A DNA stretch of 63,880 nt, the filler included, from a bacterium (GTDB lineage Bacteria > UBA9089 > CG2-30-40-21 > SBAY01): assembly GCA_040757115.1 (NCBI GenBank). It is 5 parts of 5 records of this genome, joined end to end, with 100 filler letters (N's around TTAATTAATTAA, not from the genome) between each part and the next. Parts side by side here need not be neighbours in the genome. Positions count along the whole stretch, not along the records: positions 26,922 to 39,773 come from JBFLYA010000109.1; 4 more parts are not named here. One strand, 5' to 3'. Under the pieces are notes generated by a model. The model saw only the letters and a list, made by a program, of their open reading frames with translations, had not been told where the DNA came from and ran no database searches. Below, piece by piece: positions 6,027 through 52,749 of this stretch; within the stretch, counting starts at the first letter, position 1, and every line of letters begins with the position of its first letter. The translations under genes were made by a program, and so were the position numbers.

Positions 6027-6029
6027 TTT

Positions 6030-6100: not shown

Positions 6101-6133
6101 ATTTACCAAAGAAAAGGAGGGATAAGTTAAAAA

Positions 6134-6454
6134 ATGGAGTTTCAAAACATTCTTAAACAAGTTCAAGAGATGGGAACACAATTTAAAAAGGTTCAAAAAG
6201 AACTGGCTTCTAAAAAAGTCACCGCCAGTGTTGGTGGTGGGATGGTTCAAGTTACGGCTAATGGACAAAAAGAAATCATCAGTATTACCATAGAAAAAGC
6301 CATAATTAATCCTCAAGAAAAGCAGATGTTAGAGGATTTAGTTTGTGCCGGGGTAAATGAGGCACTTTCAAAGGCACAAGATTTAGCCGTAGAACAAATG
6401 ATGAAAACGACTGGTGGGATGAACATCTTTGGATTATTAAAAGGGTTGGTTTGA
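6134..6454 (+). CDS. ybaB: YbaB/EbfC nucleoid-associated protein
   Basis: [27 protein letters not shown]; dnaX-ybaB-recR synteny. Confidence 0.95.
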
Positions 6455-6458
6455 AAAA

Positions 6459-7055: not shown

Positions 7056-7149
7056 AAAATTATAGGGTTTCACGAAATTAAAAGGAGGTAATTGGTCACT
7101 AATTACCATTCACCAGTTACCAATTACCAGAAAATAGGAGGTATTTAAA

Positions 7150-8025
7150 ATGTTTAAAGGTTCAATTGTTGCTCTGGTAACACCATTTAAAGATGGTCAG
7201 GTAGATAAGGAAAGGTTGTTGGAATTAGTTGAGTTTCATATTCAAGAAGGGACAGATGGGATAGTACCGTGTGGGACTACTGGTGAATCAGCGACTTTGT
7301 CCCATGATGAACACAAAGAGGTCGTAACTCTGGTTGTCAACGCAGTAAATAAACGAATTCCAGTGATTGCCGGGGCGGGGTCAAATTGCACGCGGGAATC
7401 TGTTGATTTAGCTCATCATGCGAAAAAGGTAGGTGCTGACGCTATTTTAGCCGTAACACCTTACTACAATAAACCAACACAAGCCGGACTATATGAACAC
7501 TACGCCACCATTGCTAAAGAGGTTGATATTCCACTTATTCTTTATAATGTTCCAGGTAGAACCGGCGTAAATTTACAACCTGAAACCGTGGCAAAACTAT
7601 CTAAAATCAACAATATTGTTGGAATTAAAGAGGCATCGGCAGATTTAAGACAACAAACTAAAATTGTTGAGCTTTGCCGTCCAGATTTTGCCTTAATCTC
7701 TGGTGATGATTTTACACTACTACCAACATTATCTATTGGTGGAGTAGGCGTTATCTCAGTCGTCGCAAACATTGTCCCAAAAGATATGGCAAATTTAATT
7801 AAAGAGTTTAACAAAGGCAACTTTGATGAGGCGAAAAGATTACATTATAAAATATTTCCTTTATGTGAGGCTTGTTTTATTGAGACAAGTCCGGTGCCTG
7901 TAAAAGAGGCATTAGGAATAATGGGTAAGATATTGCCAGAAGTAAGACTACCTTTAGTCCCATTACAAGAAACTAATCGAGAAAAACTACGGCAAACTCT
8001 AATTACCTATGGGATAGGCGTTTAG
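7150..8025 (+). CDS. dapA: 4-hydroxy-tetrahydrodipicolinate synthase
   Basis: GTTGES, YNVPGRTG, GIKEAS motifs. Confidence 0.96.
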   Translation: MFKGSIVALVTPFKDGQVDKERLLELVEFHIQEGTDGIVPCGTTGESATLSHDEHKEVVTLVVNAVNKRIPVIAGAGSNCTRESVDLAHHAKKVGADAILAVTPYYNKPTQAGLYEHYATIAKEVDIPLILYNVPGRTGVNLQPETVAKLSKINNIVGIKEASADLRQQTKIVELCRPDFALISGDDFTLLPTLSIGGVGVISVVANIVPKDMANLIKEFNKGNFDEAKRLHYKIFPLCEACFIETSPVPVKEALGIMGKILPEVRLPLVPLQETNREKLRQTLITYGIGV

Positions 8026-8081
8026 CAGATAGTTGAGCGATTACAAAGAGGGTGTTGAAAAAGTCCTCGCACCCAACAAGG

Positions 8082-10020: not shown

Positions 10021-10073
10021 GCTTTTATCCCATTAAAGTTTTTTGAAATCTCCTTTACTTCAAGAACATTCAT
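10021..10073 (-). pseudogene. livG: 5' stub of branched-chain amino-acid ABC ATPase truncated by the IS
   Basis: Reads MNVLEVKEISKNFNGIKA just after livM and ends exactly at the IS right end. Confidence 0.75.
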
Positions 10074-10085
10074 CTCTCTCTACCT

Positions 10086-10955
10086 TTACTCAAATTTGTA
10101 TTCACCTGCAATCCCTTGAGGTCGAAAATACATAAAGCCGATGAGAAGCAGGGCATAAATCATCTGCCGCAGGTTAGCGGCTACTGAATCTGGGATCCCG
10201 AGGAATCGTAAGACTTCCGGGATAATAAGGAGAAGAACTGTTCCAACAACCGGTCCTTTCAGATTGCCCATTCCGCCAACAATGATAATGGTAGCAATGA
10301 ATATTGACTCCTCTAATGTGAAGCTTGTCGGGTCGATGTAAGTAACATAATGGGCAAAGAGACTTCCGGAAATAGCTGCCATTCCAGCCGCAATAAGGAA
10401 GGCAAGAACCTTTACTCTGAATACATCCTTGCCCAGGGCCTGGGTGGCTAACTCATCCTCTCTGATTGCCTTTAATAATCTTCCAAAGGGAGAGACAAGA
10501 ATTCTCCTTATCACAAAGAAAGAGCCTGCCACGATAATAAGGGTTAGCAAAAAGTATTTCGGCAAGGTGGAGAACTCAAATCCAAATAGTGATGGGACAG
10601 GTATACCAGGTATCCCATAAGGCCCTCTGGTAAGACCAATCCAGTTATACAGGATAGTAAATACAATGAGTTGGAATCCGATGGTGGCTAAGATAAAGTA
10701 GTCTCCCTTCAGGCGGAGGGATGGAAGAGAGACACACAGGCTTATAGCCATTGCCCCAAGAATACTTAGCGGAAGAGCTAAAAAGAAGTTTAGCCCCAGT
10801 TTCACCATCAGCAGGGTTGATATATAAGCCCCTATTCCATAAAAGGCAGCATGGCAAATAGAGAGAAGCCCGGTATAGCCTATTAGCAGGTTAAGGGAAA
10901 AAGCCAGGATGAGGTAGATATTTATCATAATCAAGATATGAAGTAAATAATTCAT
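10086..10955 (-). CDS. livM: Branched-chain amino-acid ABC permease
   Basis: GYTGLLS..HAAFYGIGAY, LRLKGDYF, FGRLLKAIREDE. Confidence 0.92.
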   Translation of the reverse strand: MNYLLHILIMINIYLILAFSLNLLIGYTGLLSICHAAFYGIGAYISTLLMVKLGLNFFLALPLSILGAMAISLCVSLPSLRLKGDYFILATIGFQLIVFTILYNWIGLTRGPYGIPGIPVPSLFGFEFSTLPKYFLLTLIIVAGSFFVIRRILVSPFGRLLKAIREDELATQALGKDVFRVKVLAFLIAAGMAAISGSLFAHYVTYIDPTSFTLEESIFIATIIIVGGMGNLKGPVVGTVLLLIIPEVLRFLGIPDSVAANLRQMIYALLLIGFMYFRPQGIAGEYKFE

Positions 10956-11827
10956 GTCTCTTCAAGCCTCCTTGTCTTGCCCATAATTCCCTGCGGACGG
11001 AAGAGGAGAAACATAATCAGAATAGAGAAAGTGACCAGGTCTTGCCATCTGGCGGAGGTCTTCCAGATGACCATATTCTGGATTATACCTAAGAATAATC
11101 CACCCAGGGCAGCTCCGGTAAAGGTCTTTACTCCACCCACAATAACGGCCACCGCCGCTAAGAGAAAGATGGAAAGGCCCATATTGGGATCAATCCCTAC
11201 ATCTAAAGAGACAAGTGCCGCCCCAACACCAGCCAAAAGGGAACCTACTCCAAAGGCAATGATTCTTGTCTTCTCAACATCTATCCCTACCACTTCTGCC
11301 AGAAGGGCATTATTAGACAATCCCCTTAATGCCTTCCCAAGTCTTGTTTTCATTAGGAAGATATAAAAGATGGAAAAGAGAATAACAAAGGCTATGGCAT
11401 CCAAGACCTGAATCCGGGTCAGGATAATTGAACCAAAGTGGTAGGTTTTGCTTACCCGAGGGAAGATGACTTTGGTTTCGTTTCCAAAGAGGAGGGCAAT
11501 TAGGTTTTGAAGAAAGATATAGACACCAAGAGAGCTAATGATGTAAGTAGCTGGTGCGGCCTCCTTTTTTCTTAAAGGGGAGTAAATAAATACCTCTATC
11601 AGGATACCCAATAGAGTTGCTCCGGCCAGGGAGAGAAAAAGGCTTGTTAGAATGTTTGTCTTAAGATTGATAAAGAGGAGATAGAGAAGGTAAGCCCCAC
11701 TTGTATAAACAATCCCATGTGCAAAATGAAAAATCCCCGTAGCGCTATATATTAACCCAAAGCCCATAGCAACCAATGCGTAAACACATCCCATTACAAT
11801 ACCGTTAGATAGAAGCTGAATTAGCAA
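10952..11827 (-). CDS. livH: Branched-chain amino-acid ABC permease
   Basis: NGIVMGCVYALVAMGFGLIY, FAHG, LLFRPQG; TTG start with GGAGG RBS. Confidence 0.92.
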   Translation of the reverse strand: MLIQLLSNGIVMGCVYALVAMGFGLIYSATGIFHFAHGIVYTSGAYLLYLLFINLKTNILTSLFLSLAGATLLGILIEVFIYSPLRKKEAAPATYIISSLGVYIFLQNLIALLFGNETKVIFPRVSKTYHFGSIILTRIQVLDAIAFVILFSIFYIFLMKTRLGKALRGLSNNALLAEVVGIDVEKTRIIAFGVGSLLAGVGAALVSLDVGIDPNMGLSIFLLAAVAVIVGGVKTFTGAALGGLFLGIIQNMVIWKTSARWQDLVTFSILIMFLLFRPQGIMGKTRRLEET

Positions 11828-13361: not shown

Positions 13362-13461
13362 NNNNNNNNNNNNNNNNNNNNNNNNNNNNNNNNNNNNNNN
13401 NNNNNTTAATTAATTAANNNNNNNNNNNNNNNNNNNNNNNNNNNNNNNNNNNNNNNNNNNN
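13362..13461. other. Artificial contig linker (N44-TTAATTAATTAA-N44); also 26822-26921, 39774-39873, 52610-52709
   Basis: Identical all-frame stop linker in four gaps. Confidence 0.95.
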
Positions 13462-26683: not shown

Positions 26684-27067
26684 TTGCGGTTCAACAGCAA
26701 TTCTCGGTGAAAATAAGAAATGGGTATTTATGAGGGTTTTTCGGGATTATGAAATATATTTTTCGTAAAGATTTTTGTTTTTTGAAAAAAAGATATAGAC
26801 TTTTTATCTTAAATGTGGTATNNNNNNNNNNNNNNNNNNNNNNNNNNNNNNNNNNNNNNNNNNNNTTAATTAATTAANNNNNNNNNNNNNNNNNNNNNNN
26901 NNNNNNNNNNNNNNNNNNNNNTTTAACAAAATATCTGGAATAGTAACTATCATCATATCTATTTCTCCTCCCTTTTATAATTAATATCGGGAGGAAATAG
27001 ATAATACTTAATACTTTAATTGTCAATTTGTTATAAAAAAACGCAAAAGTTTAGATAGTAAATTTGG

Positions 27068-27577
27068 GTAACTGTTCAGCCACAGAGGCACAGAGTTCAC
27101 AGAGAATTAGAGAAATTAGCCATAAATGGACACGAATTAACCTCTGACATTCGATAAATGTAATGCGAACCTTTGTATGTGTTTAGCGTATTTATGCATT
27201 GGATACAAACCTGAAAGGTTTGAATTTTACATAACCGTAGGTAAAACCTACGGAAATGGACATTTACGATGTCTCTCAACCCTGAAAGGGTTGAATTTTA
27301 AACGAGGGATAAAATTCGACCCTTTCAGGGTCTCAGAGTGCATGTATGTGTTTCTTCCGTAGATTGCATCTACGGTTATGTGAAGTTTGACGCTTTCAGC
27401 GTCGGAAAAAAATATCGTCACGCTAAACACATACGAACCTTTAGGTTTGCTTTCCTGCTTGCCAGAAGCGAGGCTAAAGTCTCGCACTACAAATCTTTTT
27501 ATTATTCGTGTTCATTCGTGGTTATATATTCCCTCTGTGTTCTCTGTGACTCTGTGGTTATATCCCGGAACGGTTAC
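27068..27577. mobile_element. Family D element containing a nested element
   Basis: TIRs; TSD AAATTTGG; equals 33684-33923 plus an insert. Confidence 0.9.
27175..27434. mobile_element. Nested GTATGTGTTTAGCGT-TIR element with REP-like GAAA hairpins
   Basis: 15-bp perfect TIR; TSD GAACCTTT; ACCCTGAAAGGGT and CCGTAGG...CCTACGG stems. Confidence 0.88.
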
Positions 27578-27596
27578 AAATTTGGAGAATAAAAAA

Positions 27597-28796
27597 ATGG
27601 GTAATGAAGAGATAGAAAAACACCTGGAATTAGGTGAAGATTCTAAGTGGGAGTTTAAGTCAGAAATTTCACATCCCGATGACCTATCTTCTGAAATTGT
27701 CGCTATGGCAAACTCTGAAGGCGGAACTATCCTACTTGGTGTCTCTGATAAGGGAGAACCAACTGGTAACCTTGATGATAAGGAAACAATGAATACAGTG
27801 GTTGTCTCAATAGAAAATATCTCTCGGAATAATATAGAACCCGCTTTATTTCTTACCTGGGAAAAGATAAAGATAAATGGTCACACAATCCTGGCGATTA
27901 AAATTCCCAAAGGTCCAGATAGACCATACCGCACCAACAAAGGAGTCTATTATCTCCGTGTGGGGACAAGCAAAAAGATTATTAGTCGGGGAGAGTTAGC
28001 AAAGCTCTTTCAATCTACCGGCTTATTTTATCCTGATGAATCCCCGGTTTTAAATACGGACATCGCTGATATTGATAGTGATTATCTGAACAAAGCCTGG
28101 CCCGAATTAGTAAGCATACCTTTATCTAAAGCCAGACTCAAAGACTGTGGGATAATAAGCACTGATGAATCTGCTTTGACAATTGGTGGGCTTATCTGCT
28201 ATGGCAAAGAACCACAAAAAAGGCTACCTTATGCCAGGATTACTGCCATCAGATTCCCGGAAGGAGATATTGAAGGTGGACATAGGTATCTTGAGAGGTT
28301 AGAGATTGAAGGCAGGATTGAAGACCAGGCAAAGGAAGCAACTATGTTTTTGACTCGTCATCTTGGAATAGTAGAAGAAATTTTGACATTTGCTTCGGAA
28401 ACTCAAACCAGCCCTCCCAAACTCTTATTATCAGCCATTCAGGAAGGAATAATCAATGCCCTGGTTCACCGCGATTACACCCTTCCTTCCCAAATTAGAC
28501 TCTTTGTCTTTGATGACAGGATAGAAATATTAAGTCCTGGCAGGTTGTTGAATACGGTAAATCTTTCAGAACTGAAACTTGGCTGTCATGCGGTTAGAAA
28601 CCGTATCATCTTTGCCCATTGTCTGAGGCTGAAATTGGTTTATAATGTGGGATTGGGTATTCCAACAATGTTCAGGCTAACACTCAGGGCAGGTCTTCCT
28701 GAACCAGAAATAAGTCTTGTCGGCTCAGAATTTAGACTTGTCTTCAGGAGAAACGCTCATGTCCACAGCGCGGACACAAACGACGATGAAAATTAA
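27597..28796 (+). CDS. AlbA_2 (Schlafen-like) + HATPase_c_4 ('RecG C-terminal') protein
   Basis: GED...EFK, IVAMANSEGGTILLGVSD, YYLRVG, EGIINALVHRDY, DDRIEILSPG; 3' end runs into the junction repeat. Confidence 0.88.
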   Translation: MGNEEIEKHLELGEDSKWEFKSEISHPDDLSSEIVAMANSEGGTILLGVSDKGEPTGNLDDKETMNTVVVSIENISRNNIEPALFLTWEKIKINGHTILAIKIPKGPDRPYRTNKGVYYLRVGTSKKIISRGELAKLFQSTGLFYPDESPVLNTDIADIDSDYLNKAWPELVSIPLSKARLKDCGIISTDESALTIGGLICYGKEPQKRLPYARITAIRFPEGDIEGGHRYLERLEIEGRIEDQAKEATMFLTRHLGIVEEILTFASETQTSPPKLLLSAIQEGIINALVHRDYTLPSQIRLFVFDDRIEILSPGRLLNTVNLSELKLGCHAVRNRIIFAHCLRLKLVYNVGLGIPTMFRLTLRAGLPEPEISLVGSEFRLVFRRNAHVHSADTNDDEN

Positions 28797-28842
28797 TGGG
28801 ACGCAGATTTACAGGATTTACAAGATTTTAAAGAAAAGCCAC

Positions 28843-28990
28843 TAATGCTCTGTCGCCATTCAAGTGATTGATTGGCCGTTGTCCCCCGCTGGCGGGGGTA
28901 GGGGGTGGATTCTTCTATTTCAGATTTCATATTCCACCCCCTTAATCCCCCGCCAGCGGGGAACATCAATTGAGTAGCGACAGAGCACTA
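28843..28990. mobile_element. TAATGCTCTGTCGC-ended element enclosing CCCCCGCTGGCGGGGG palindromes
   Basis: TGCTCTGTCGC...GCGACAGAGCA inverted repeat nested in a GGACGCAGAT/ATCTGCGTCC hairpin. Confidence 0.65.
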
Positions 28991-29189
28991 AGGCACTATA
29001 AAAACATCAAGAAACTTTAAGGAAATAACTATAGAAATACAATAATAAAAAATTAATTTTAATCCTGTTCATCTGCGAAAATCTGCGTCCAATTTTACAT
29101 TTTCAGGGGAAACGGGCATGACCTGCGGCTACCAGCCTTTCCGAGTCCCGAACCCCGAGTCCCGAGTCCCGATTTTCAGGAGAACAATA

Positions 29190-32100
29190 ATGGAATGGTA
29201 TGAAAGATTAGATGGATGGAATAAGATAAATGAAGGCGACCTGGTAACCATTGCCTTATTTAAGTTTGATATGGCAAAATCTACCCAGCTTGGAAAACAA
29301 CTTGGTGCAGAAGAAAACAGAGATTGCCTTAAGAAATATCACGACCTGGTAGAATATATTCTAACCGGGTTTAATATCGCTCCCCAGCCATTTGAATTTC
29401 AAAAGGATGGGGCAACGGTCTATTTCCTTGGGGAAAATGCCGTCTCTGAGGCAGTTCGTGCCGGGAAAAAACTTCTTTCTGAGATAAGAAGGACTCTGGA
29501 ATACGAGGTTCACATCAGAATTGGCATTGGTGTTGACGATGTGTATTTCAAGAAAAGACTGGGAGAGATTTCATCACATCAGTTTGACCTTGGAGGACAT
29601 TCAGAAAAGGTTTGCCCCATCGATTCCCTTGTCTTAACCGAGGAGGCATATTTAGACCTTGATAGATTAGATAAAGGATTGGCAAGTGAGTTTGGCTTTC
29701 TTGGAACTACACTTGAGGATAAGTCACCTTTATTTGTCTATCCCAAAACTCGCCAGATAAACAAACCAGCTGAATTTTTTAAGCCAGAGGATGACCCATA
29801 CTGCATTAAGGCACGGCTTATCAATTACTATAATACCCCATCATTTTGTCAATTTAGATTTGTGGGCATCCGTCAATTTGAAAAGGTAGGGTTAGCCCTG
29901 GAGATTCGTAAGGCTTATGTCCTTCTTAAAGCCCGTGCCTGGAAGGAAAGGGAAGAGATAGATGAAAGTAGAAAGATGAAAGATGAAAGAGAAAGGGAAG
30001 AAAGGGAAAGAAGACCTTTTCTAAGCGAAAAGACCTATCGCGAGACACCTATTCCCCTTGACGGACTTTTAAAGAAAGACAAAAATATTATTCTGCTTGG
30101 TGACCCCGGTTCTGGAAAGACAACCTTTCTTCGCTGGCTTAGCTTGATGTTTATAGATGGGGTAAGGAATATAAAAAGGCATCTGGGAATTGAGGAAAGC
30201 CTTATTCCCCTCTTTATCTCTGTAGGTAGATTCTTTAATTTGCGTTCAGAAAATCCAAACCTTGGATTACTTAATCTCCTTTCCCTCTATTTTTGTCCCT
30301 ATGGCTGTGAGGGATTGGAAAAGATGCTTGAACCTCGATTAAATGATGGGCAGGTTATCTTTCTCTTTGATGGTCTGGATGAGCTCCCATCTGCCAATGA
30401 AAGAGAGATAGCAAGAAATCTGGTTGAACTCTATACCAGCCAATATTCAAAGAATAGATTCATCATCACCAGTAGAATTGTTGGCTATCCCGGGCTTTCT
30501 ATCCCTAATTCCAGAGAGTATTGTCTGGAAGGACTTGATGAAGATGAGGCAACAAAATTGGCTTTTGCCTTTTACTTTAGTTTAGCCATTAAGGATGAAG
30601 AAAAAAAACCCCGGGCAAAGGAACTGGCAGAAGAGAAAAGCCATATCCTTATCTCATCATTAAAGGAGCGGGAAAACCTCCTTGCCTTTCTCCAGAACCC
30701 ACTCTTACTTACCCTGTCTGCCATCTGCCACACAAATCTTGGCAAACTTCCCAAATATAGGGTTCGGCTATATGAGGTCGCCACCCAGACATTGGTTGAT
30801 GCCTGGGCAAATGCAAGAAGACCTGAGAGTATAACAGAAAGAGAACACATTGACTATGAGGCAGAAGGACTGCGTGTCTTACCAGCCATTGCTCTCTGGA
30901 TGCATCAGGAAAAACCAGCGGGATTGGTCAGAGAGGATGAACTTATAGAAAAGATTAAAGCCCTGCTTGGAAAAGGGGAATTTGATGCCAAAGAATTTAT
31001 GAGGAGACTTGAAGCCGCAGGAAGCCTTTTAATAAATAGAGGAGAAAACCAATATGGCTTTATCCACCAAACATTCCAGGAGTATTTAGTGGCAAAACAA
31101 ATGGTAAAATCAGTAAAAGATTCCTGGGAAGATTACATCTCTGAATTTCTTTACAACCCCCGCTATGAAGAAATATGGAGACTAATTGCAGGTGAGATTG
31201 GCATAATTGAAGGAAGCGGTGAGAAGGCAAGCCTTTATATAAAAAAGATTTACGAAGATACTGATGACATTAATGCACAAATCCTTAAGAAGAACCTTTT
31301 GCTCTCTGCCAAAGCCCTTTCAGATACCGTCTCTTATGATGAGGAGCTGAATAATGGGATTGTATCTGACCTCTTTAATGCCTGCATTAAGGATGAACCA
31401 CCACCACCCAGAGAACAACTCTTCCTTGCCATCCGACAATTAAAAGGAAGGGAAGAAGGTGAAAGGCTTTGTGGCCTTCTGGTAGATAGACTGAAGGATT
31501 TTGATAGGGATGTTCGTTCTGCCGCAGCAGAGGCAATAGGGAATCTGGGGGATAAAAGTGCCCTCCCACAACTTATTCCTTTGTTGAGTGATGCTGTTGG
31601 GTATGTTCGTTCTGCCTCAGCAGAGGCAATAGGGATGTTGGGGGATAAAAGTGCCCTCCCACAACTTATTCCTTTGTTGAGTGATGCTAATTGGTTTGTT
31701 CGTTCTGCCGCAGTAGAGGCGATAGGGAAGTTGGGGGATAAAAGTGCCCTCCCACAACTTATTCCTTTGTTGAGTGATGCTGAGTGGGATGTTGTTCGTT
31801 CTGCCGCAGCCGAGGCAATAGGGAAGTTGGGGGATAAAAGTGTCCTCCCAAAACTTATTCCTTTGTTGAATGATGCTGATGGGTATGTTTGTTCTGCCGC
31901 AGCAAGGGCAATAGGGGAGTTGGGTGATAAAAGTGTCCTCCCAAAACTTATTCTTTTGTTGAAAGATGCTAAGTGGGATGTTCGTTCTGCCGCAGCAAGG
32001 GCAATAGGGAATGTGCGGGATAAAAGTGTCCTCCCACAACTTATTCCTTTGTTGAGTGATGCTGATGGGTATGTTCGTTCTGCCGCAGCAAGGGCAATAG

Positions 32101-32492
32101 GGAAGTTAGGTGATAAAAGTGCCCTCCCACAACTTATTCCTTTGTTGAGTGATGATGAGTGGTATGTTCGTTCTGCCGCAGCAGAGGCAATAGGGAAGTT
32201 AGGGGATAAAAGTGCCCTCCCACAACTTATTCCTTTGTTGAGTGATGCTGATGGGTATGTTTGTTCTGCCGCAGCAAGGGCAATAGGGGAGTTGGGTGAT
32301 AAAAGTGTCCTCCCAAAACTTATTCTTTTGTTGAAAGATGCTAAGTGGGATGTTCGTTCTGCCGCAGCAAGGGCAATAGGGAAGTTGGGTGATAAAAGTG
32401 CCCTCCCACAACTTATTCCTTTGTTGAATGATGCTAAGTGGGATGTTCGTTCTGCCGCAGCAGAGGCAATCTGGAATCTCTCGCTGGTCTAA
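29190..32492 (+). CDS. NLR-like STAND protein: class III nucleotide-cyclase-like domain + NACHT NTPase + HEAT repeats
   Basis: VTIALFKFDMAKST, KDGATVYF, IRIGIG; GDPGSGKTT, FLFDGLDE, IITSR, NPLLLT, FIHQTFQEYL; 10.5 HEAT repeats; AGGAG RBS before MEWYE. Confidence 0.88.
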   Translation: MEWYERLDGWNKINEGDLVTIALFKFDMAKSTQLGKQLGAEENRDCLKKYHDLVEYILTGFNIAPQPFEFQKDGATVYFLGENAVSEAVRAGKKLLSEIRRTLEYEVHIRIGIGVDDVYFKKRLGEISSHQFDLGGHSEKVCPIDSLVLTEEAYLDLDRLDKGLASEFGFLGTTLEDKSPLFVYPKTRQINKPAEFFKPEDDPYCIKARLINYYNTPSFCQFRFVGIRQFEKVGLALEIRKAYVLLKARAWKEREEIDESRKMKDEREREERERRPFLSEKTYRETPIPLDGLLKKDKNIILLGDPGSGKTTFLRWLSLMFIDGVRNIKRHLGIEESLIPLFISVGRFFNLRSENPNLGLLNLLSLYFCPYGCEGLEKMLEPRLNDGQVIFLFDGLDELPSANEREIARNLVELYTSQYSKNRFIITSRIVGYPGLSIPNSREYCLEGLDEDEATKLAFAFYFSLAIKDEEKKPRAKELAEEKSHILISSLKERENLLAFLQNPLLLTLSAICHTNLGKLPKYRVRLYEVATQTLVDAWANARRPESITEREHIDYEAEGLRVLPAIALWMHQEKPAGLVREDELIEKIKALLGKGEFDAKEFMRRLEAAGSLLINRGENQYGFIHQTFQEYLVAKQMVKSVKDSWEDYISEFLYNPRYEEIWRLIAGEIGIIEGSGEKASLYIKKIYEDTDDINAQILKKNLLLSAKALSDTVSYDEELNNGIVSDLFNACIKDEPPPPREQLFLAIRQLKGREEGERLCGLLVDRLKDFDRDVRSAAAEAIGNLGDKSALPQLIPLLSDAVGYVRSASAEAIGMLGDKSALPQLIPLLSDANWFVRSAAVEAIGKLGDKSALPQLIPLLSDAEWDVVRSAAAEAIGKLGDKSVLPKLIPLLNDADGYVCSAAARAIGELGDKSVLPKLILLLKDAKWDVRSAAARAIGNVRDKSVLPQLIPLLSDADGYVRSAAARAIGKLGDKSALPQLIPLLSDDEWYVRSAAAEAIGKLGDKSALPQLIPLLSDADGYVCSAAARAIGELGDKSVLPKLILLLKDAKWDVRSAAARAIGKLGDKSALPQLIPLLNDAKWDVRSAAAEAIWNLSLV
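31503..32480 (+). repeat. Coding tandem array of ~10.5 near-identical 93-bp HEAT units
   Basis: GTTCGTTCTGCCGCAGCA...GATAAAAGTGCCCTCCCACAACTTATTCCTTTGTTG repeated with 93-bp period (one 96-bp unit). Confidence 0.95.
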
Positions 32493-32723
32493 TTCCAGGT
32501 TCATAAGAAGCGGAAATTTTCCTTATAGGGCTATTAACTGGAAGTCTACATAGGATAATACCCATAAATAAGGCATGAGAATAATCGTTCCGTTAGGAAC
32601 ATAATATCGGTAGGAATAGATAGACAAACCAATCAGTTCCGTAGATGGTAGAAAATTTATGGAAAACCATTTACCAATATATTGTCCCTATGGGACATTA
32701 ATGAAGGATGAGGTAGAATTTTC

Positions 32724-32977
32724 GTAACCGTTCAGATAGTAATTCACCGCAGAGACGCAGAGGAACAGAGAAGAAATTGAAATAAATCAGACAACAGAAA
32801 AGATTATTGAGGCAATTATTGTCCTACATAGGACCTCAAAACCAAATTTGTTAATCAATCATGATATGTCGGTTTTCAAAAGCTTGCTCTGATGAAAATC
32901 CGTGATGGAATGAGGCATGTGGTAAATAGTTTTTAATTTTTTCTCTGCGTCTCTGTGTCTCTGCGGTGAACGGTTAC
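32724..32977 (+). mobile_element. Family C element with degenerate GxxExxY remnant
   Basis: TIRs and CCGCAGAGACGCAGAG arms; EINQTTEKII; no TSD. Confidence 0.82.
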
Positions 32978-33014
32978 TGGTCAACAATACATATTATACG
33001 AGGAGGTAAAAGGT

Positions 33015-33701
33015 ATGAAAAAAATAATTGTATGTGGATTGCTTGTTCTGAGTTTATCAGGATGCATGGGAACAAAAGAAAAACCTGTTACGACTGAAGA
33101 AATTACTATGGCAGAATCAGGAATTAGTTCGTCAGGTAAATTGGAGTTTTCTAACGAAGAAGAGGTAAAAGGGTTGGAAATGAAGTCTGAAGAAAGTAAG
33201 AAGGAAATGGAAGAAATAGGGGTTATTGAGACTAAGTTTGGTAAAATGACTATCAGATTTTTCCCGCAAGATGCACCAGGTCATGTAGAAAACTTTAAAA
33301 AATTGGCTAAAGGAAGGTTTTACAATGAAACAACATTTCATCGGGTCATACCAGGGTTTATGATTCAAGGCGGAGACCCAAATAGTAAAGATGATGACCG
33401 AACTAATGATGGTATGGGTGGACCAGGTTATACAATTAAGGCAGAATTTAATAGCCTATCTCACAAAAGAGGTATCGTTTCTATGGCACGCAGTGCTCAT
33501 CCGGATAGTGCCGGGTCTCAATTCTTTATCTGTGTTGCCCCAGCGACTTTCTTAGATGGACAATATACAGTATTTGGAGAGGTAATAAATGGGATGGATG
33601 TTGCGGATAAGATTGTCAATGTCCCACGGGATAGCAATGATAACCCAATAGAAAAAATACCAATGACCGTATCGATTATCAGTGTAAGCGTTCAGCCATA
33701 G
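33015..33701 (+). CDS. Cyclophilin-type peptidyl-prolyl isomerase, lipoprotein
   Basis: LSGC lipobox; FHRVIPGFMIQGGDP, SMAR, SAGSQFFI, LDGQYTVFG. Confidence 0.93.
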   Translation: MKKIIVCGLLVLSLSGCMGTKEKPVTTEEITMAESGISSSGKLEFSNEEEVKGLEMKSEESKKEMEEIGVIETKFGKMTIRFFPQDAPGHVENFKKLAKGRFYNETTFHRVIPGFMIQGGDPNSKDDDRTNDGMGGPGYTIKAEFNSLSHKRGIVSMARSAHPDSAGSQFFICVAPATFLDGQYTVFGEVINGMDVADKIVNVPRDSNDNPIEKIPMTVSIISVSVQP

Positions 33702-33923
33702 AGGCACAGAGTTCACAGAGAATTAAGGAAATTAGCCATAAATGGACACGAATTAACCTCTGACATCCCATAAATGTAGTACGAACCTTTAGGTTCGTCT
33801 TTTGGCTTGCCACAAGCGAAGCTAACGCCTCGCACTACAAATCTTTTTGTATTTGTGTTCATTCGTGGTTATATATTTCCTCTGTGTTCTCTGTGACTCT
33901 GTGGCTATATCCTGAACGGTTAC
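33684..33923. mobile_element. Family D element inserted in the last codons of the PPIase gene
   Basis: TIRs; perfect TSD TTATCAGT. Confidence 0.92.
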
Positions 33924-33937
33924 TTATCAGTAAATAA

Positions 33938-35179
33938 ATGACTTGTGAATTAATTCTTAAAGCAAATTATATATTACCTATATTAAAGCCTTTAATTGAA
34001 GATGGAGCTATTCATATTAAAGATGGCACAATAATTGAATGTGCCAAATTTTCTAAAATCTCAAGTGCAGATAAAAAGATTGTAGAATTAAAGAATGCCT
34101 GTTTATTGCCTGGTTTTGTCAATGCGCATAGTCATCTTGAATTAACCAGTCTAAAAGGTAAAGTTCCGTATAAAGGGTCATTTATTCAATGGATTCGGGA
34201 TATAATTGAAGCAAAAAATGTCTGGAATGAAAAGAATTACATAAGTTCTTTAAAGTTAAGTATTAAACAATTAGTCGAAAGTGGCACAACAACAATTGTA
34301 GATATTACGGCAAGTGGATTATCACCACAAATTTTATTAACCTCTAATTTACGAGGTAGAATTTATAAAGAGATAACTGGCTTTAAATTTGATTCAGTAA
34401 GTCAAATTATTACAGACTTAAAAAAATATCTATCAAATTTATCCCCAACAAATTTAATTGACTTTGGTGTAGCTCCACATGCACCTTATTCAGTTAGTCC
34501 AAAGTTACTTACAGAATTACTTAGTCTATCCAGAAATAATAACTTACCTCTGTCTATTCATCTATCTGAGGATAAAACAGAACTAAAATTTCTTATGAAA
34601 GGTAAAGGTGAAATAATAAATTTATTAAAAGAATTAAATGTTTGGGAAGATGAATGGAAGCAACCAGGACTGTCTTCAGTAAAATATTTAGATTCCATAG
34701 GGATATTGAATTCAAATATTATTGCTGTGCATCTAAATTGCATTAATGAAGAAGATTTAGAGATTTTAAAAAAAAGAAGGGTAGGAGTAGTTCATTGTCC
34801 TAAAAGTCATAAATTTTTTCAACGAGATGACTTCCCTATTCAAAAATTAATAGATAAAGGGATTATAATTGCTTTAGGAACAGATTCATTAGCCAGTAAT
34901 GATTCATTAAATATGTTAGAGGAAATAAAGGAATTAAAAAGAAGATATAAAACCCTTTCTGCCGAAGGAATTCTTGAATTAGCTACGATAAATGGAGCAA
35001 AGATATTGGGACTTATGGATAAGATTGGAACTTTGCAACCAGGTAAAAAAGCGGATATAATTGCCTTGAGACTGCCTGAAGATTTAACTAAAGAGAAATT
35101 ATATGAATTTATAGTAACAAATGCAAAAAAGGTTATATTAAATATGGTAGATGGGAACTTCTTAAGATTTGAAGTTTAG
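33938..35179 (+). CDS. Metal-dependent amidohydrolase (MtaD/aminodeoxyfutalosine deaminase-like)
   Basis: PGFVNAHSHLE, APHAPYS, IHLSE, ALGTDS.ASN. Confidence 0.85.
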   Translation: MTCELILKANYILPILKPLIEDGAIHIKDGTIIECAKFSKISSADKKIVELKNACLLPGFVNAHSHLELTSLKGKVPYKGSFIQWIRDIIEAKNVWNEKNYISSLKLSIKQLVESGTTTIVDITASGLSPQILLTSNLRGRIYKEITGFKFDSVSQIITDLKKYLSNLSPTNLIDFGVAPHAPYSVSPKLLTELLSLSRNNNLPLSIHLSEDKTELKFLMKGKGEIINLLKELNVWEDEWKQPGLSSVKYLDSIGILNSNIIAVHLNCINEEDLEILKKRRVGVVHCPKSHKFFQRDDFPIQKLIDKGIIIALGTDSLASNDSLNMLEEIKELKRRYKTLSAEGILELATINGAKILGLMDKIGTLQPGKKADIIALRLPEDLTKEKLYEFIVTNAKKVILNMVDGNFLRFEV

Positions 35180-35269
35180 AAGTTATAAAGTTCTTAAGTT
35201 AAAAATTGGTAACTGGTAATTAGTGATTGGTAACTAATTATCAGTTACTAATTACTAAAGGTCCGTAAA

Positions 35270-36088
35270 ATGAAAATAGCCATAAGTGGTAAAGGAGGCG
35301 TTGGCAAAACAACATTAAGTGTTTTGTTAGCCTCATTGTATGTTGAAGAAGGAAAAAAAACCTTATTAGTCGATGCAGACCCGGATAGTAATTTAGCCGC
35401 TTGTCTTGGACTTTCACAAGAAATAGTCAATCAAATTACGCCTATTTCTAAAATGAAAGCACTTATTGAAGAACGCACCGGGGCAAAATTAGACCAGACA
35501 GGAACTTTATTTAAAATAAACCCCCAGGTAAATGATATTCCTGATAGATTTAGTCTAAATTTTAATGGGATTAAACTTTTAATTATGGGGACTGTTGAAA
35601 AAGGTAAATCTGGTTGTATGTGTCCGGCTAATACCCTTCTTAAAAATTTAATGAAAGAACTCTTAGTTAAAAAAGATGAGGTAGTTATTTTAGACATGGA
35701 GGCAGGAATTGAACATTTAGGCAGAGCGACGGCAGGTAATGTTGATGTATTTTTAGTCGTAGTAGAACCTGGACTTAGAAGTATTCACACCGCTAAAAAT
35801 ATTCAAAGATTAGCCAGAGATATTGGAATTAAAAATGTCCTGATTGTGAGCAATAAGGTAAGAAATGAACAGGATTACAGTATCATCACCCAGGAGGTAA
35901 AACCTCTTGAAATTATTGGTTCTATTTCATATCATGAAGAATTAATCAAAGCCGACCTCATGGGAAAAGGTATATTACCTATCCCAAATCCAAAAATTAA
36001 AGAAGAGATAGAAAATATAAAGTATATGATAAAAAGAAGTGAAGAAAGAGGAGAAGAGAGTAACGGTAAAGATGGGATACAATTTTAG
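35270..36088 (+). CDS. cooC: CO dehydrogenase/ACS nickel-insertion ATPase (CooC/AcsF family)
   Basis: SGKGGVGKTT, DADPDSNL, GCMCP, DMEAGIEHLGR. Confidence 0.92.
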   Translation: MKIAISGKGGVGKTTLSVLLASLYVEEGKKTLLVDADPDSNLAACLGLSQEIVNQITPISKMKALIEERTGAKLDQTGTLFKINPQVNDIPDRFSLNFNGIKLLIMGTVEKGKSGCMCPANTLLKNLMKELLVKKDEVVILDMEAGIEHLGRATAGNVDVFLVVVEPGLRSIHTAKNIQRLARDIGIKNVLIVSNKVRNEQDYSIITQEVKPLEIIGSISYHEELIKADLMGKGILPIPNPKIKEEIENIKYMIKRSEERGEESNGKDGIQF

Positions 36089-36485
36089 TAGCTGTTCACC
36101 GCACAGACACAGAGACGCAGAGAAAAAAATTAAAATCTATTCACCAGAGACAGAAATTTCCTTTTTTTGTGTGCCTTTCGGGTCTTTCGTTGTTTATTAA
36201 TCTTCTAATACTTACTTTTAACTAACTGTTTTTAAGCCTTTTTAAACACCGAAAAACGCGATAAACACGAAAAAAAAGTAACCGTTCACCGCAGAGACAC
36301 AGAGACGCAGAGAAAAAATTAAAATTTATTGATAACTATTCAGCCACAGATGGACACAGATGAAACACTGATTTTATTTTTTATCCGTGCTAATCCGTGT
36401 TAATCAGTGGCTGAATAGTTACTTTATTTCTATGTTTTCTCTGTTCCTCTGCGTCTCTGCGGTAAAGGATTACTTGAACGGTTAC
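36088..36485. mobile_element. Composite family C element (second C end at 36278, mini-B at 36332-36422)
   Basis: Outer TIRs; perfect TSD CAATTTTA. Confidence 0.88.
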
Positions 36486-36490
36486 CAATT

Positions 36491-37999
36491 TTATTCTTCT
36501 TGAACGACTCTGAGAACCTCCTCTACGGTAGTTACTCCTCTTTGCACCTTTTGAAAACCATCTTCTTGCATAGTTTTCATTCCTGATTTAATAGCAAGTT
36601 CTTTTATTTTATGAGCATTAGTCTTTTGGAGTATTAATTCTTGTAATTCATCATTTATCAGCAGTAATTCAAATATACCTATTCTTCCTTTAAAGGCAGA
36701 GTAATTGCACTTTTCACAACCACGTCCTTTAAGAAGTGTTTTTGAATGAAACTCTTTGACTAATTCTGGAGCAGGGAGATATTCTTCCCTGCACTCCGGG
36801 CAAATAAGTCGAACAAGCCGCTGGGCTAATATTCCAATTACCGACGAGGAAATCAGAAAATCCTCAACTCCCATATCATGGAGTCGGGTAATAGCACTTG
36901 CGGCATCATTGGTATGTAATGTTGAGAAAACTAAATGGCCCGTCAAAGCCGCCTGAACAGCTACCTCAGCCGTCTCTAAATCCCTTATCTCACCAACCAT
37001 CATAATATCCGGGTCTTGCCTTAACATTGACCGCAATCCTTGAGCAAACCCAAAGTTTATTTTAGGTTTTACCTGCAATTGATTTATTCGCTTTATTTGA
37101 TACTCAACCGGGTCTTCAATGGTAATAATTTTTTTCTCAGTTGAATTAATGCGGTTTAATGTCGCATACAGGGTTGTGGTTTTACCTGAACCAGTAGGAC
37201 CTGTAACTAAAATAATTCCATTTGGTCTATGGATTAATTTTTTAAATTGTTCAAGTATTGTTTCCTCAAATCCTAAGTCTTCTAATTCCAATAAAATACT
37301 TTCTTTTTCAAGTATTCTAAGAACTAAACTTTCGCCATAGAGTGTAGGTAATGTTGCGACACGAATATCAATTTGTTTGCCACCAACCTTAAGTTGTATT
37401 CGACCGTCTTGTGGTAATCTTCGTTCTGCAATGTTCATCTCAGCCATAAGTTTGATTCTTGAGATAATAGCCGGATAAAGCCATTTAGGTGGAGGAGCGG
37501 TATCATACAACACACCATCTATTCTATATCTCACCACCATTTCATCTTCAAAACATTCAATATGAATATCACTGGCTCTTTTTTTAATTGCCTCCATGAT
37601 GATTAAGTTGACTAATTTAATCACCGGTGCCTCATGAGCCAAACTCTCTAAATCAGCAGTTGTTTCTTTATCCTGGTCACTAATTTTCTTCTCTTTAATC
37701 CCGGAGATAATATCTTCAACGGTCTGTGCACCTGTTCCATAATATTTTTGTAATGCCTGGTCTATCTCATCTTGTGAACTAAACACTACTTCTATTTTAC
37801 ATCCTAATAAAAGTCCAATATCATCAAGGATATGAATTTCTAATGGGTCTGCGGTAGCAATAGTCAAAGTGTTATTATCCATTTTAATCGGGATTAGTCG
37901 ATACCTATTGACAAATTTTGCCGGTAATTTTTTAATTACTTCTTGAGGAATCTCAAGACTTAAAATATTTACTATTGGAATTTCATGTGTCAAATTCAT
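36491..37999 (-). CDS. gspE: Type II secretion/type IV pilus ATPase (GspE/PilB family)
   Basis: ASDIHIE, RRLPQDG, GPTGSGKTT, LRQDPD, TGHLVFSTLHTN, Zn motif. Confidence 0.92.
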   Translation of the reverse strand: MNLTHEIPIVNILSLEIPQEVIKKLPAKFVNRYRLIPIKMDNNTLTIATADPLEIHILDDIGLLLGCKIEVVFSSQDEIDQALQKYYGTGAQTVEDIISGIKEKKISDQDKETTADLESLAHEAPVIKLVNLIIMEAIKKRASDIHIECFEDEMVVRYRIDGVLYDTAPPPKWLYPAIISRIKLMAEMNIAERRLPQDGRIQLKVGGKQIDIRVATLPTLYGESLVLRILEKESILLELEDLGFEETILEQFKKLIHRPNGIILVTGPTGSGKTTTLYATLNRINSTEKKIITIEDPVEYQIKRINQLQVKPKINFGFAQGLRSMLRQDPDIMMVGEIRDLETAEVAVQAALTGHLVFSTLHTNDAASAITRLHDMGVEDFLISSSVIGILAQRLVRLICPECREEYLPAPELVKEFHSKTLLKGRGCEKCNYSAFKGRIGIFELLLINDELQELILQKTNAHKIKELAIKSGMKTMQEDGFQKVQRGVTTVEEVLRVVQEE

Positions 38000-38021
38000 T
38001 CTAAACCTTCTTTAAAAAATT

Positions 38022-38293
38022 GTAAGCGTTCAGGCTACACATCCGGTGTGTAAAAAGGGGGATAAAGAGATAAGGGAGATGTGGAGATTATAAATTAAAA
38101 GATTATGGTTATGAAGTTGGTATGGAAGCCTGCTCCTGACAGGCTCAGGAATTAGGTCAAGATGGTTCTAACTTCATAACCACTAAACCAAACCAGCCTC
38201 CTAACCCTAACCCTTTCACCAAGAACTCCTAAATATATCCTCTTATCTCCATAATCTCCATATCTCCTTTTCTTACACTACCTGAACGCTTAC
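38022..38293. mobile_element. Family A' element (A-type outer arms, different core)
   Basis: TIRs; TSD AAAAAATT; related to 50029-50265. Confidence 0.88.
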
Positions 38294-38399
38294 AAAAAAT
38301 TTTTCTTGCTAATATAGCCTGATAATATTATAATATATTCAGGTGGTTATTGTCAACCACCTTTTGCAGAAAATTAAAAGTAGTAACAAGAGGTGAATA

Positions 38400-39608
38400 A
38401 TGAAAATAGCGTATTTTGATTGTTTTTCTGGGATTAGTGGAGATATGATTTTGGGGGCTCTGGTTGATGCTGGATTGAATTTTGAGGATTTAAGAAACGA
38501 ACTAAAAAAGATACCAGTAGCCGACTACGAAATCAAATATGAAAAGATGATTAAAAAAGGTATTGCTTGCACAAAAGTAGATGTAATTACTGCGAGTGAA
38601 ATTGGCTCACCAGCAGAAATGATTGAATTGGTGGAAAAAAGCACATTAGAAGATGATATGAAACAGAAATCCAAAAAAATTCTCTATCGAATGGGAGAGG
38701 TTGAGGCGAAAGTTCATAGCATCTTAAAATCCAAAATAGAAGATGTGCATTTTCACGAGTTAAATTCTGTTGACACAATCATTGATGTTGTTGGAGCAGT
38801 TATTGGATTTAAAAAATTATGTATTGATGAAATTTATTCATCTCCTTTAAATGTGGGCAGTGGCATAATAAAAACTAAACATGGCATTCTTCCTGCACCT
38901 GGACCGGCGACTTGTGAATTGCTAAGAGGTATTCCTGTGTATTCAAGTGGAATAAAAGCCGAACTTACGACACCAACGGGTGCGGCAATTATCACAACAT
39001 TAGCTACTGGATTTGGTCATTTACCCGCAATGAAGATTGAGACAATTGGCTATGGAAGTGGGAATTTTGAACTCGAGCAACAGAGTAATTTACTTAGAGT
39101 CCTAATCGGTGAATCTCAAAAAGATGAGTGTGAATCTGATATAATCTCTTTAATTGAAACAAATATTGATGATTTAAACCCACAGATTTATGAATATTGT
39201 TTTGAGCGATTATTTGAGGCAGGGGCATTGGATATTTATTTGACCCCAATTATAATGAAAAAGAACCGTTCTGGGATAATTTTATCAATCATTGCCCCGC
39301 TGGATAAAGTGGATGAACTGATTAATATCGTTTTTAAGGAAACAACTTCTATTGGTATCCGATTGCAGGAGATAAGACGGAAAAAAATCAAAAGGGAAAT
39401 AATAGAAATAGAGACGGAATTAGGCAAGATGAAGGTCAAGAAAGTCATTTTTGAAGGCAAGGTTGAAATTATTCCTGAATATGAATCGTGCAAAAAGATT
39501 GCTATAGAAAAAGGAATTCCTTTAAAAAAAGTTTATTCAATAATAAACTCATCTGCAGATACGGGAAAGTATGGGACGCAAATAAACGCAGATTATCAGG
39601 ATTTTTAA
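38400..39608 (+). CDS. larC: Nickel-pincer cofactor biosynthesis protein
   Basis: YFDCFSGISGDM.LGAL, HFHE, ELTTPTGAA, ETNIDD, MKKNR, PEYE. Confidence 0.93.
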   Translation: MKIAYFDCFSGISGDMILGALVDAGLNFEDLRNELKKIPVADYEIKYEKMIKKGIACTKVDVITASEIGSPAEMIELVEKSTLEDDMKQKSKKILYRMGEVEAKVHSILKSKIEDVHFHELNSVDTIIDVVGAVIGFKKLCIDEIYSSPLNVGSGIIKTKHGILPAPGPATCELLRGIPVYSSGIKAELTTPTGAAIITTLATGFGHLPAMKIETIGYGSGNFELEQQSNLLRVLIGESQKDECESDIISLIETNIDDLNPQIYEYCFERLFEAGALDIYLTPIIMKKNRSGIILSIIAPLDKVDELINIVFKETTSIGIRLQEIRRKKIKREIIEIETELGKMKVKKVIFEGKVEIIPEYESCKKIAIEKGIPLKKVYSIINSSADTGKYGTQINADYQDF

Positions 39609-39881
39609 ATATACATCCTGATAATCTACGAAAATCTGCGTCCCATAACCTATTTTCAGGAGAAACGGACATGAGCCAAGGCTCACAAAGGGCAATGAAA
39701 ATGGGAGAAGGACAACCCCCTAACCCCCTTTATTAAGGGGGAATTGCTGAGAGTTTCTTTCTTCCCGAGTCCCNNNNNNNNNNNNNNNNNNNNNNNNNNN
39801 NNNNNNNNNNNNNNNNNTTAATTAATTAANNNNNNNNNNNNNNNNNNNNNNNNNNNNNNNNNNNNNNNNNNNNAAATTCTA

Positions 39882-52479: not shown

Positions 52480-52749
52480 GGCTATTTGCTACATAGCATA
52501 ACATCGTGCACCCTATTTTAATACAAATTTATAGCAGGACATCGTGCACTCTCACCCCATGGGGTGAGCGAAATTCTAATCCTCAAAAATAGCAGGACAT
52601 CGTGCACCTNNNNNNNNNNNNNNNNNNNNNNNNNNNNNNNNNNNNNNNNNNNNTTAATTAATTAANNNNNNNNNNNNNNNNNNNNNNNNNNNNNNNNNNN
52701 NNNNNNNNNCAGTTTAATGGCACTTCAGTAACAAAAATTCAAATATAAC

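Follow-up and report, generated by a model that had tools for sequence, protein, structure and literature searches.

We describe here a conserved pair of genes at positions 27,597 to 32,492 of a 63,880-nucleotide stretch of bacterial DNA (GTDB lineage Bacteria; UBA9089; CG2-30-40-21; SBAY01; assembly GCA_040757115.1, hereafter G000). The whole stretch is called the window. The first gene encodes a 'Schlatpase', a Schlafen-type ribonuclease (RNase) joined to a GHKL ATPase, and the second encodes a protein built like a NOD-like receptor (NLR) with a cyclase-like head. The two genes form a conserved dyad and are not two independently captured cassettes. We regard the locus as a conserved two-gene module of the NLR type whose most likely function is anti-phage defence by abortive infection, an assignment that we favour with reasonable rather than high confidence. 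The reading that suits the pair best is a split form of bacterial NLR/Schlafen immunity which carries a predicted cyclase-like head. Its defence role, the direction of signalling and the step which couples the two proteins are what we infer from the data presented below. Both reading frames named in the original prediction, an SLFN_AlbA_2/HATPase_c_4 gene followed by a NACHT/HEAT_2 gene on the same strand, were confirmed with Pfam:

27597..28796, plus strand: Schlatpase gene, an SLFN_AlbA_2 RNase domain and a GHKL/HATPase_c_4 ATPase, 399 aa, with no domain of the helix-turn-helix (HTH) type (Pfam, homologues, structure model)
29190..32492, plus strand: NLR-like gene, 1100 aa, with a cyclase-homology domain, NACHT, a winged-helix region and HEAT repeats (Pfam, orthologue alignment)

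The association of the two genes was followed in 401 genomes sampled around G000, in the phyla of three matches (G195, G119 and G031, represented by 2, 4 and 6 genomes, where the search added one locus only) and in GTDB species genomes. In total, fourteen loci carry a member of the cyclase-like NACHT family, while a single-sequence search with the N-terminal domain across genome contigs returned no related loci. A Schlatpase gene lies directly upstream and on the same strand in 11 of the 14 loci, and within about 3 kb (at most 3.2 kb) in 12. The original prediction had proposed co-occurrence across genomes as its check, and the homologues do co-occur. The paired loci (G000, G018, G021, G003, G031, G011, G022, G195, G119, a Planctomycetota metagenome-assembled genome (MAG; L093) and an Altiarchaeales MAG (L094)) span several bacterial phyla and one archaeon. 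The archaeal pair, at positions 1075-4082 of L094 (Candidatus Altiarchaeales), would imply transfer between domains; its contig measures only 4 kb and a binning error is possible. In the control sets, a Schlatpase was found within 1.5 kb in none of 36 loci with weaker, ordinary cyclase matches and within 3 kb in one of 77 NACHT loci without a cyclase-like domain, the NACHT set coming from a profile search of loci which returned mostly generic NACHT loci. Because the Schlatpase is directly upstream in 11/14 loci against 0/36 and 1/77 in the controls, a functional pair is supported and independent cassettes are rejected; both had been offered as alternatives in the original prediction.

In the twelfth locus (G024:C123), the Schlatpase is located 3 kb upstream, and a 584-aa PF00211 cyclase and an MNT/HEPN pair intervene before the NLR gene. 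This 584-aa protein (locus L029, positions 5142-7678, Guanylate_cyc at 5.7e-8) is a second cyclase straight after a Schlatpase. A twelfth genome, G020, harbors adjoining remnants of both genes (L031, G020:C28, positions 5419-5964): a stretch of 29 Schlatpase residues with 79% identity next to the initial 98 residues of the NLR, which are about 60% identical. These remnants show decay of the whole module.

The organization of the paired loci bears on the idea that two defence or accessory genes were each captured separately between repeat junctions, which we consider highly improbable. Schlafen and NACHT genes do occur alone elsewhere, with 8 other Schlatpase-like and 2 further NACHT matches in G000 itself, and 393 nt of repeats separate the Schlatpase stop from the NLR start in the window. 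Against this stand the direct adjacency across phyla and in an archaeon, reading frames which mostly overlap, partner identities which fall in parallel, and a spacer made of genome-wide repeats which were inserted secondarily. The overlaps range from 4 nt (G031, G195) through 8 nt (G011, G022) and 14 nt (G018, G021) to 16 nt (G119), and relatives as distant as 30% identity are included. The Schlatpase and the NLR are separate open reading frames (ORFs) in different frames, and the stop of the first lies 14 nt inside the second in G018 and G021. The locus does not encode a single polypeptide with both Schlafen and NACHT (of the bNACHT34 or Cluster 5 type), and the ORFs are separate in the other loci too. 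Identity to the two window proteins is 76/45% in G018 and G021 and about 30-35% for both partners elsewhere.

The partner Schlatpases also stand apart from their paralogues. In the five genomes tested (5/5), they match the partner profile at E-values of 1e-131 to 1e-145 and the other paralogues at 1e-73 or worse, a separation that is partly circular because the partners belong to the profile. A quick maximum-likelihood tree places 10 partner Schlatpases in one HTH-less clade (SH-aLRT, a likelihood-ratio branch test, 93) and seven of eight non-partner paralogues outside. This clade also holds 38 database rows of unknown context together with one non-partner paralogue, and the partners depart from a strict clade by 2 changes in this quick tree.

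The spacer between the two genes is a repeat block with a position that can be related to the overlap in the relatives:

28743..29185, no strand assigned: 443-nt dispersed repeat block in the ancestral gene overlap (repeat homology, orthologue comparison, RNA fold)

Repeat homology begins sharply at 28743-28746 and stops at 29172-29185. In G018 and G021, the end of gene 1 reads ...EFRLV(L/F)(R/K)RYGMV*, and the NLR start lies inside it. In the window, the final 14 codons of the Schlatpase gene, together with its stop, come from the repeat block and replace the last four residues, and the AGGAG before the NLR ATG comes from its right end; both reading frames are still open despite the 443 nt. 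It had been predicted that the Schlatpase gene ends inside a junction and that the NLR gene takes its ribosome-binding site from one, and these two observations account for both statements. Because the genes overlap in relatives and the repeat is genome-wide, the block was inserted secondarily into the ancestral overlap of the two genes. Folded as RNA, the spacer forms an extensive nested hairpin (-157 kcal/mol, z = -8, 0/100 shuffles as good). The spacer had been described as made of junction sites and hairpins: the strong hairpin repeats are real and they are not specific to the locus, their motifs GAACGGTTAC and TTCAGGAGAA having 616 copies in the genome, spread over 261 of the 462 contigs where about 6 copies would be expected, and 200 copies where about 10 would be. 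The claim of a junction-delimited array falls with these genome-wide repeats and with a window that consists of joined contigs.

The Schlatpase combines two clearly recognized domains. Pfam locates SLFN_AlbA_2 (PF04326) at aa 14-128 with 89.2 bits (cut-off 25.3) and HATPase_c_4 (PF13749) at aa 298-383 with 63.9 bits (cut-off 26). The structure model, with a mean predicted local distance difference test (pLDDT) value of 87.9, matches DIP2311 (3lmm) in Foldseek; domain by domain, it matches the SAMD9 tRNase, SLFN14, SLFN11, SLFN5 and SLFN13, and histidine-kinase ATPase domains. The nuclease motif lies at the start of the first domain:

27636..27659, plus strand: codons of the Ex4ExK nuclease motif, E14, E19 and K21 (alignment; motif as defined in section 6 of PMC13056530)

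In an alignment of 39 relatives, the Ex4ExK motif is intact, with E14 invariant and E19, F20 and K21 conserved in at least 90%. The SAFAN-type box reads AMAN, and its N39 is invariant, as is N287 in the GHKL N-box (E283..N287A..HRDY). The Ex4(E/D)xK, SAFAN-type and N-box motifs are those named for active prokaryotic Schlafens (PMC13056530; bioRxiv 10.64898/2026.05.29.728809; here and below, published work is cited from portions of its text). Among 704 Schlatpase homologues found, the 120 listed are about 354-431 aa long and two-domain, save one with AlbA_2 alone. The original prediction had noted that the AlbA_2 gene lacks the usual winged HTH tail. The absence is real, and it is a family trait rather than a truncation, because 119 of the 120 homologues listed carry just the AlbA_2 and HATPase_c_4 domains.

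The NLR-like protein displays the three-part build of bacterial NACHT proteins, with the cyclase-like domain at aa 1-215, NACHT at aa 300-459 and HEAT repeats at aa 784-1094. Its true start is the ATG at 29190 (MEWYERL, matching the orthologues). The listed ORF began at 29118, and this extension falls within the repeat block; in Pfam, the listed ORF (29118-32492) gives 38.6 bits for NACHT and 508 bits for HEAT_2. The two C-terminal parts are:

30087..30566, plus strand: NACHT NTPase module, Walker A GDPGSGKT, Walker B DGLDE (PF05729, sequence)
31539..32489, plus strand: ten tandem HEAT repeats of 31 aa (93 nt) (Pfam, repeat analysis)

The NACHT match (PF05729) has an E-value of 3.3e-10 and 38.6-40.5 bits against a cut-off of 26.7. 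The HEAT repeats are 70-94% identical at the DNA level and their variation is concentrated at repeat positions 2, 17, 20-22 and 29, with 219, 174 and 149 nucleotide differences at the first, second and third codon positions, respectively. These variable positions resemble the hypervariable sites of NLR sensor repeats. The number of HEAT repeats may be open to short-read assembly error.

The N-terminal part of the protein is the cyclase-like domain:

29190..29834, plus strand: divergent homology domain of the class III nucleotidyl-cyclase type, roughly aa 1-215, including D27, D73, R110 and G136-H137 (AlphaFold2 model, Foldseek, profile, conservation)

An exhaustive HMMER search among 1.84 billion proteins yielded only 58 cluster representatives for the domain, nearly all of them as the N-terminus of proteins of 800-1200 aa, and a Pfam scan of 48 family members found NACHT in 41/48 and HEAT_2 in 33/48. 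An AlphaFold2 model built on the 48 sequences (pLDDT 85.1) gave 183 Foldseek matches at E <= 1e-3, of which the top ones are all class III adenylyl/guanylyl cyclases. Among them, Ma1120 gave an E-value of 5.4e-9 and a template-modelling (TM) score of 0.79; Rv1900c reached a TM score of 0.82 (scores normalised to the target). A family profile of 18 N-terminal domains searched against the PDB retrieved Ma1120 (4.9e-11), CyaB (2.5e-9), Rv1900c (1.4e-8) and the Pycsar uridylate cyclase (7.7e-6; structures 8jsz and 8jsf among the matches). By modelling and profile comparison, the N-terminal 215 aa are thus predicted to have the class III nucleotidyl-cyclase fold. For the cyclase head of the original prediction, this means that the fold stands; the Pfam model PF00211 is not matched.

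Within the family, D27 and D/E73 are kept in 48/48 members, R110 in 42/48 and H137 in 44/48, with G136-H137 nearly invariant. In the alignment with Ma1120, D27, D73 and R110 fall on its DI..ST, QGDG and RIGIH segments. We take D27 and D73 to be the metal-binding aspartate pair, and R110 the phosphate-binding arginine, of class III cyclases. Because the metal aspartates and the phosphate arginine are kept, although the second half is non-canonical, binding of nucleotide and metal by the domain is likely. A second, decayed copy of the cyclase-like domain is present at G000:C443:3573-4283 (E 6.8e-20, six in-frame stops).

Taken together, these domains suggest how the module might operate. The product of gene 2 would be the sensor and the switch: the HEAT repeats would bind the trigger, the NACHT NTPase would then oligomerise, and in the oligomer the N-terminal cyclase-homology domains would come close to one another. 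The active sites of class III cyclases form only in a dimer. The product of gene 1 would be the effector, a stand-alone Schlafen RNase with a GHKL ATPase which would cut tRNA once released. For the coupling step, our tentative choice is a nucleotide which the cyclase-like domain makes or binds and which acts on the Schlatpase. The fuller chain from NLR to nucleotide to Schlafen, in which the product of the dimerised cyclase head is read by the GHKL pocket and triggers assembly of the active tRNase, we consider unlikely as a whole. Docking of the Schlatpase directly on the activated NLR is a doubtful but serious candidate for the same step, which we weigh below.

A number of observations weigh against the module as we read it, and they concern its constancy, its chemistry and its role. 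Regarding constancy, two of the fourteen loci, G024:C153 and G403, are without a Schlatpase, the NLR of the latter being cut to 441 aa. An HTH-less Schlatpase is also found solitary among housekeeping genes (G000:C419), and in the window the hairpin-rich block may uncouple expression of the two genes. In the one positive locus among the 77 NACHT controls (L100, from a Planctomycetota MAG, positions 401-5145), a Schlatpase lies directly upstream of an NLR of Mrr_cat-NACHT-HEAT-FGE-sulfatase architecture, which has no cyclase-like domain. Regarding chemistry, aa 1-297 of the NLR match no Pfam family, PF00211 included, even at E <= 10, and a ranking by frequency of the 37 Pfam families found in the 48 family members does not have PF00211 in its top 25. 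The transition-state Asn/Arg positions of the second half are non-canonical, reading D30/N10/S6 at position 133 and H in 44/48 at position 137 in a weak alignment (hhalign probability 55%). The base-specifying position, four residues before D73, is variable (H13, S8, E7, others), and the window copy alone (1/48) has K instead of G before D73. The Schlatpase has no cyclic-nucleotide-binding domain recognised by Pfam or Foldseek. Regarding the role, an NCBIfam scan found only a 37-residue EruA match (35 bits, cut-off 1000), PADLOC gave no system-level match for either protein and no Pycsar model match, and the flanks of most loci consist of housekeeping genes, not defence islands.

In an alternative reading, the cyclase-like head does not act as a signalling enzyme towards the Schlatpase. 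The activated NACHT oligomer would bind or release the Schlatpase directly, and the head would be a second, exchangeable effector or a nucleotide-binding regulatory domain. The overlaps of 4-16 nt suggest translational coupling, which is common for complex-forming proteins. A Schlatpase without a cyclic-nucleotide sensor, a cyclase-like domain with non-canonical catalytic residues in its second half, and the L100 locus all suit direct contact, as does the finding that the oligomeric state controls the Schlafen-GHKL unit within one SLFN-pAgo (prokaryotic Argonaute) complex (bioRxiv 10.64898/2026.05.29.728809). However, the conservation of D27, D/E73 and R110 is hard to explain for a mere docking surface, and the variant headed by a restriction endonuclease (REase) is a single locus. 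We hold contact of this kind to be possible and rather doubtful. Since the L100 Schlatpase is paired with a REase-headed NLR, the constant partner may be the NACHT chassis with an exchangeable head. This exception weakens the case for strict wiring from cyclase to Schlafen, and on its account we place the nucleotide route only a little ahead of direct contact.

A further question is whether the module belongs to immunity. The NACHT-HEAT protein could sense an endogenous cue and, with the Schlafen-GHKL protein, tune RNA turnover or translation in stress or dormancy without any role against phage. Besides the absence of PADLOC system matches, such a role would suit the housekeeping flanks: defence genes adjoin the module in only three loci (G018 has a type II methyltransferase, G024 an MNT/HEPN pair and G403 a fragment of a type I REase). 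Among seven Schlafen constructs, only the DUF262 and Ig-like fusions protected whereas the histidine-kinase type did not, and 30.4% of prokaryotic Schlafen (pSlfn) genes are not near defence genes (PMC13056530). We consider a purely non-immune module improbable, given four lines of evidence. The distribution is patchy and crosses domains, with variable insertion sites such as that between Fer4 and CCG genes in G018 and G021. The HEAT units are almost identical apart from a few hypervariable positions, and nucleotide differences are more frequent at the first two codon positions (219/174) than at the third (149). The module decays or is lost in relatives, as seen in the G020 remnants, the truncated G403 gene and the six-stop pseudogene copy on G000:C443. 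Finally, members of both protein families have been shown experimentally to be antiphage.

Our preferred assignment to anti-phage defence has to be seen together with the genomic distribution. Family profile matches at 1e-12 occur in 28 of the 401 genomes, and only 11 loci reach 1e-50. The flanks, which differ in every genome, fit a small mobile module, whereas support from defence islands is weak. In G018 (L022, G018:C1, positions 3997-11704) and G021 (L023, G021:C146, positions 2688-6471), the pair comes directly after a Fer4 dicluster gene; downstream in G018 are a type II N6/N4 methylase, a 357-aa ORF and then a CCG-domain gene. The arrangement in these two genomes looks like an insertion into a Fer4-CCG gene pair. 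The PADLOC search, which the original prediction had put forward as a check, came back with partial matches only, to a Schlafen-bearing pAgo model and to HEAT models.

Several known systems share parts of this architecture. Bacterial NACHT proteins protect against phage, and N-terminal Schlafen or cyclic nucleotide monophosphate (cNMP)-cyclase domains are possible (bioRxiv 10.1101/2022.07.19.500537). As in the bNACHT proteins of Kibby et al., an N-terminal effector is followed by NACHT and C-terminal repeats, which include HEAT, and their survey lists a Schlafen RNase (bNACHT34) and a cNMP-cyclase as N-terminal effectors. Unlike in bNACHT34, the Schlafen is here a separate, putatively translationally coupled gene and the NLR itself bears the cyclase-like head. 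For the bNACHT genes tested in that study, operons were rare and poorly conserved, and no member of the dyad is among the tested proteins in the text of the paper, whose supplementary tables may list the architecture or even the dyad (bioRxiv 10.1101/2022.07.19.500537).

Prokaryotic Schlafens are antiphage tRNases (PMC13056530; bioRxiv 10.64898/2026.05.29.728809). SLFN-pAgo shares with our gene 1 the PF04326 and PF13749 unit, for which the name 'Schlatpase' was introduced there, the E(x)4(D/E)xK motif and the SAFAN-like box; in SLFN-pAgo, ATP binding to GHKL drives the tetramerisation which builds the active tRNase, and tRNA cleavage was shown. The same source describes Schlafen domains as exchanged among pAgo, NACHT and restriction-modification proteins and notes Schlafen-NACHT fusions; the word 'cyclase' appears 0 times in its text (bioRxiv 10.64898/2026.05.29.728809). 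Unlike SLFN-pAgo, where the Ago sensor is fused in one chain, the candidate sensor here is a separate NLR gene. The window protein also has the commonest pSlfn composition, pSlfn-HisKinase (34.0% of 5,930), and the Ex4(E/D)xK motif is common to it and to the pSlfn set, for which protection was shown only with the DUF262 and Ig-like fusions (PMC13056530). In the main text of that paper, the words NACHT, cyclase and operon occur 0 times.

Signalling by nucleotides has a parallel in Cash (CRISPR-associated Schlafen-Csx15), where a cyclic nucleotide messenger activates the Schlafen tRNase by way of a fused sensor; the same paper mentions Schlafen-NACHT fusions associated with type III CRISPR (Cluster 5) (PMC13462974). 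In Cash, the messenger is cyclic tetra-adenylate (cA4) from Cas10 and is read by the fused Csx15, whereas here neither a CRISPR locus nor a Csx15/CARF-type domain nor a fusion is present. Pycsar and Pucsar likewise place a class III-type cyclase beside a candidate effector gene. Unlike in Pycsar, where the cyclase stands alone and the effector senses a cNMP, the cyclase-like domain is here fused to NACHT-HEAT, and the neighbour has no cNMP-binding, TIR or transmembrane domain. ParA-effector systems resemble the pair in having a histidine-kinase-Schlafen effector gene beside a sensor NTPase (bioRxiv 10.64898/2026.10.19.760177). Their sensor NTPase is ParA, unlike here, and the PAACC cyclase occurs in other contexts, not with NACHT or Schlafen, in the text of that source. 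A description of the dyad was not found in the literature searched.

The setting of the pair must be read with the assembly in mind. The window strings together several assembly contigs with N...TTAATTAATTAA...N spacers in between, and gene order across these joins carries no meaning. The assembly of G000 comprises 462 contigs and 4.32 Mb; it is 99.9% complete and fragmented. Both genes are located on contig G000:C12, which corresponds to window positions 26922-39773. N runs are present at 3885-3984, 13362-13461, 26822-26921, 39774-39873 and 52610-52709. Four of them connect contigs C10, C11, C12, C14 and C28, and the first (3885-3984) is internal to contig C10. The join nearest to the pair and the two repeat blocks which flank it are:

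26822..26921, no strand assigned: contig joiner linking G000:C11 to G000:C12, composed of an N run, TTAATTAATTAA and a second N run, non-genomic (sequence, contig mapping)
27060..27596, no strand assigned: dispersed nested palindromic repeat block upstream of the Schlatpase gene, resembling a miniature inverted-repeat transposable element (MITE), with ends GTAACTGTTC...GAACGGTTAC (blastn; inverted repeats I2, I5, I10, I12)
32493..33014, no strand assigned: downstream dispersed palindromic repeat block, GTAACCGTTC...GAACGGTTAC (blastn; inverted repeat I3)

The sugar-nucleotide and semialdehyde-dehydrogenase genes to the left of 26822 lie on another contig and are not neighbours of the pair. Only 676 nt, all of them repeats, lie between the contig end and the start of the Schlatpase gene. 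With blastn against the genome, the upstream, spacer and downstream blocks give 199, 355 and 590 high-scoring segment pairs in 89, 133 and 196 contigs, respectively. Nested palindromes of the MITE-like kind abound throughout G000, and the initial 100 nt of the window recur in 55 contigs; these repeats are probably the cause of its fragmented assembly. Two interpretations of the repeats were rejected. The motif TTCAGGAGAA is not a target-site duplication of the insertion, being part of the repeat ends. An integron-like cassette array is not supported either, as the motifs are genome-wide, the genes are contiguous or overlapping in relatives and the left neighbours are on another contig (no integrase search was made).

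Of the contigs from Logan, one covers 27537-28801 and another 29155-31536, with zero differences from the window. None of the Logan contigs listed bridges the repeat block between the genes and the HEAT region is found in small pieces, so that it is the MAG assembly which gives the join across the repeat block and the precise count of HEAT units. An Rfam scan of the contig matched no family, and promoter and terminator scans were no better than shuffled sequence (10 promoters against 12.5 expected, 6 terminators against 6.4).

The interest of this pair lies primarily in the Schlafen-GHKL proteins. A GHKL domain is present in 58.6% of 103,533 Schlafen proteins (bioRxiv 10.64898/2026.05.29.728809). 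Among prokaryotic Schlafens, those made up of Schlafen and GHKL alone are the most numerous, yet the histidine-kinase type alone gave no protection (PMC13056530). A conserved, cross-phylum and putatively translationally coupled sensor gene provides a concrete partner for one Schlafen-GHKL clade. If the proposed route from NLR to nucleotide to Schlafen is true, it would constitute a new defence signalling route with the GHKL domain as a new kind of second-messenger receptor, and it would supply a trigger for the most abundant prokaryotic Schlafen class. The pair unites in one predicted operon two immune families shared with animals, NLR and Schlafen, and could serve to test whether oligomerisation of NACHT is able to gate a cyclase that depends on dimerisation.

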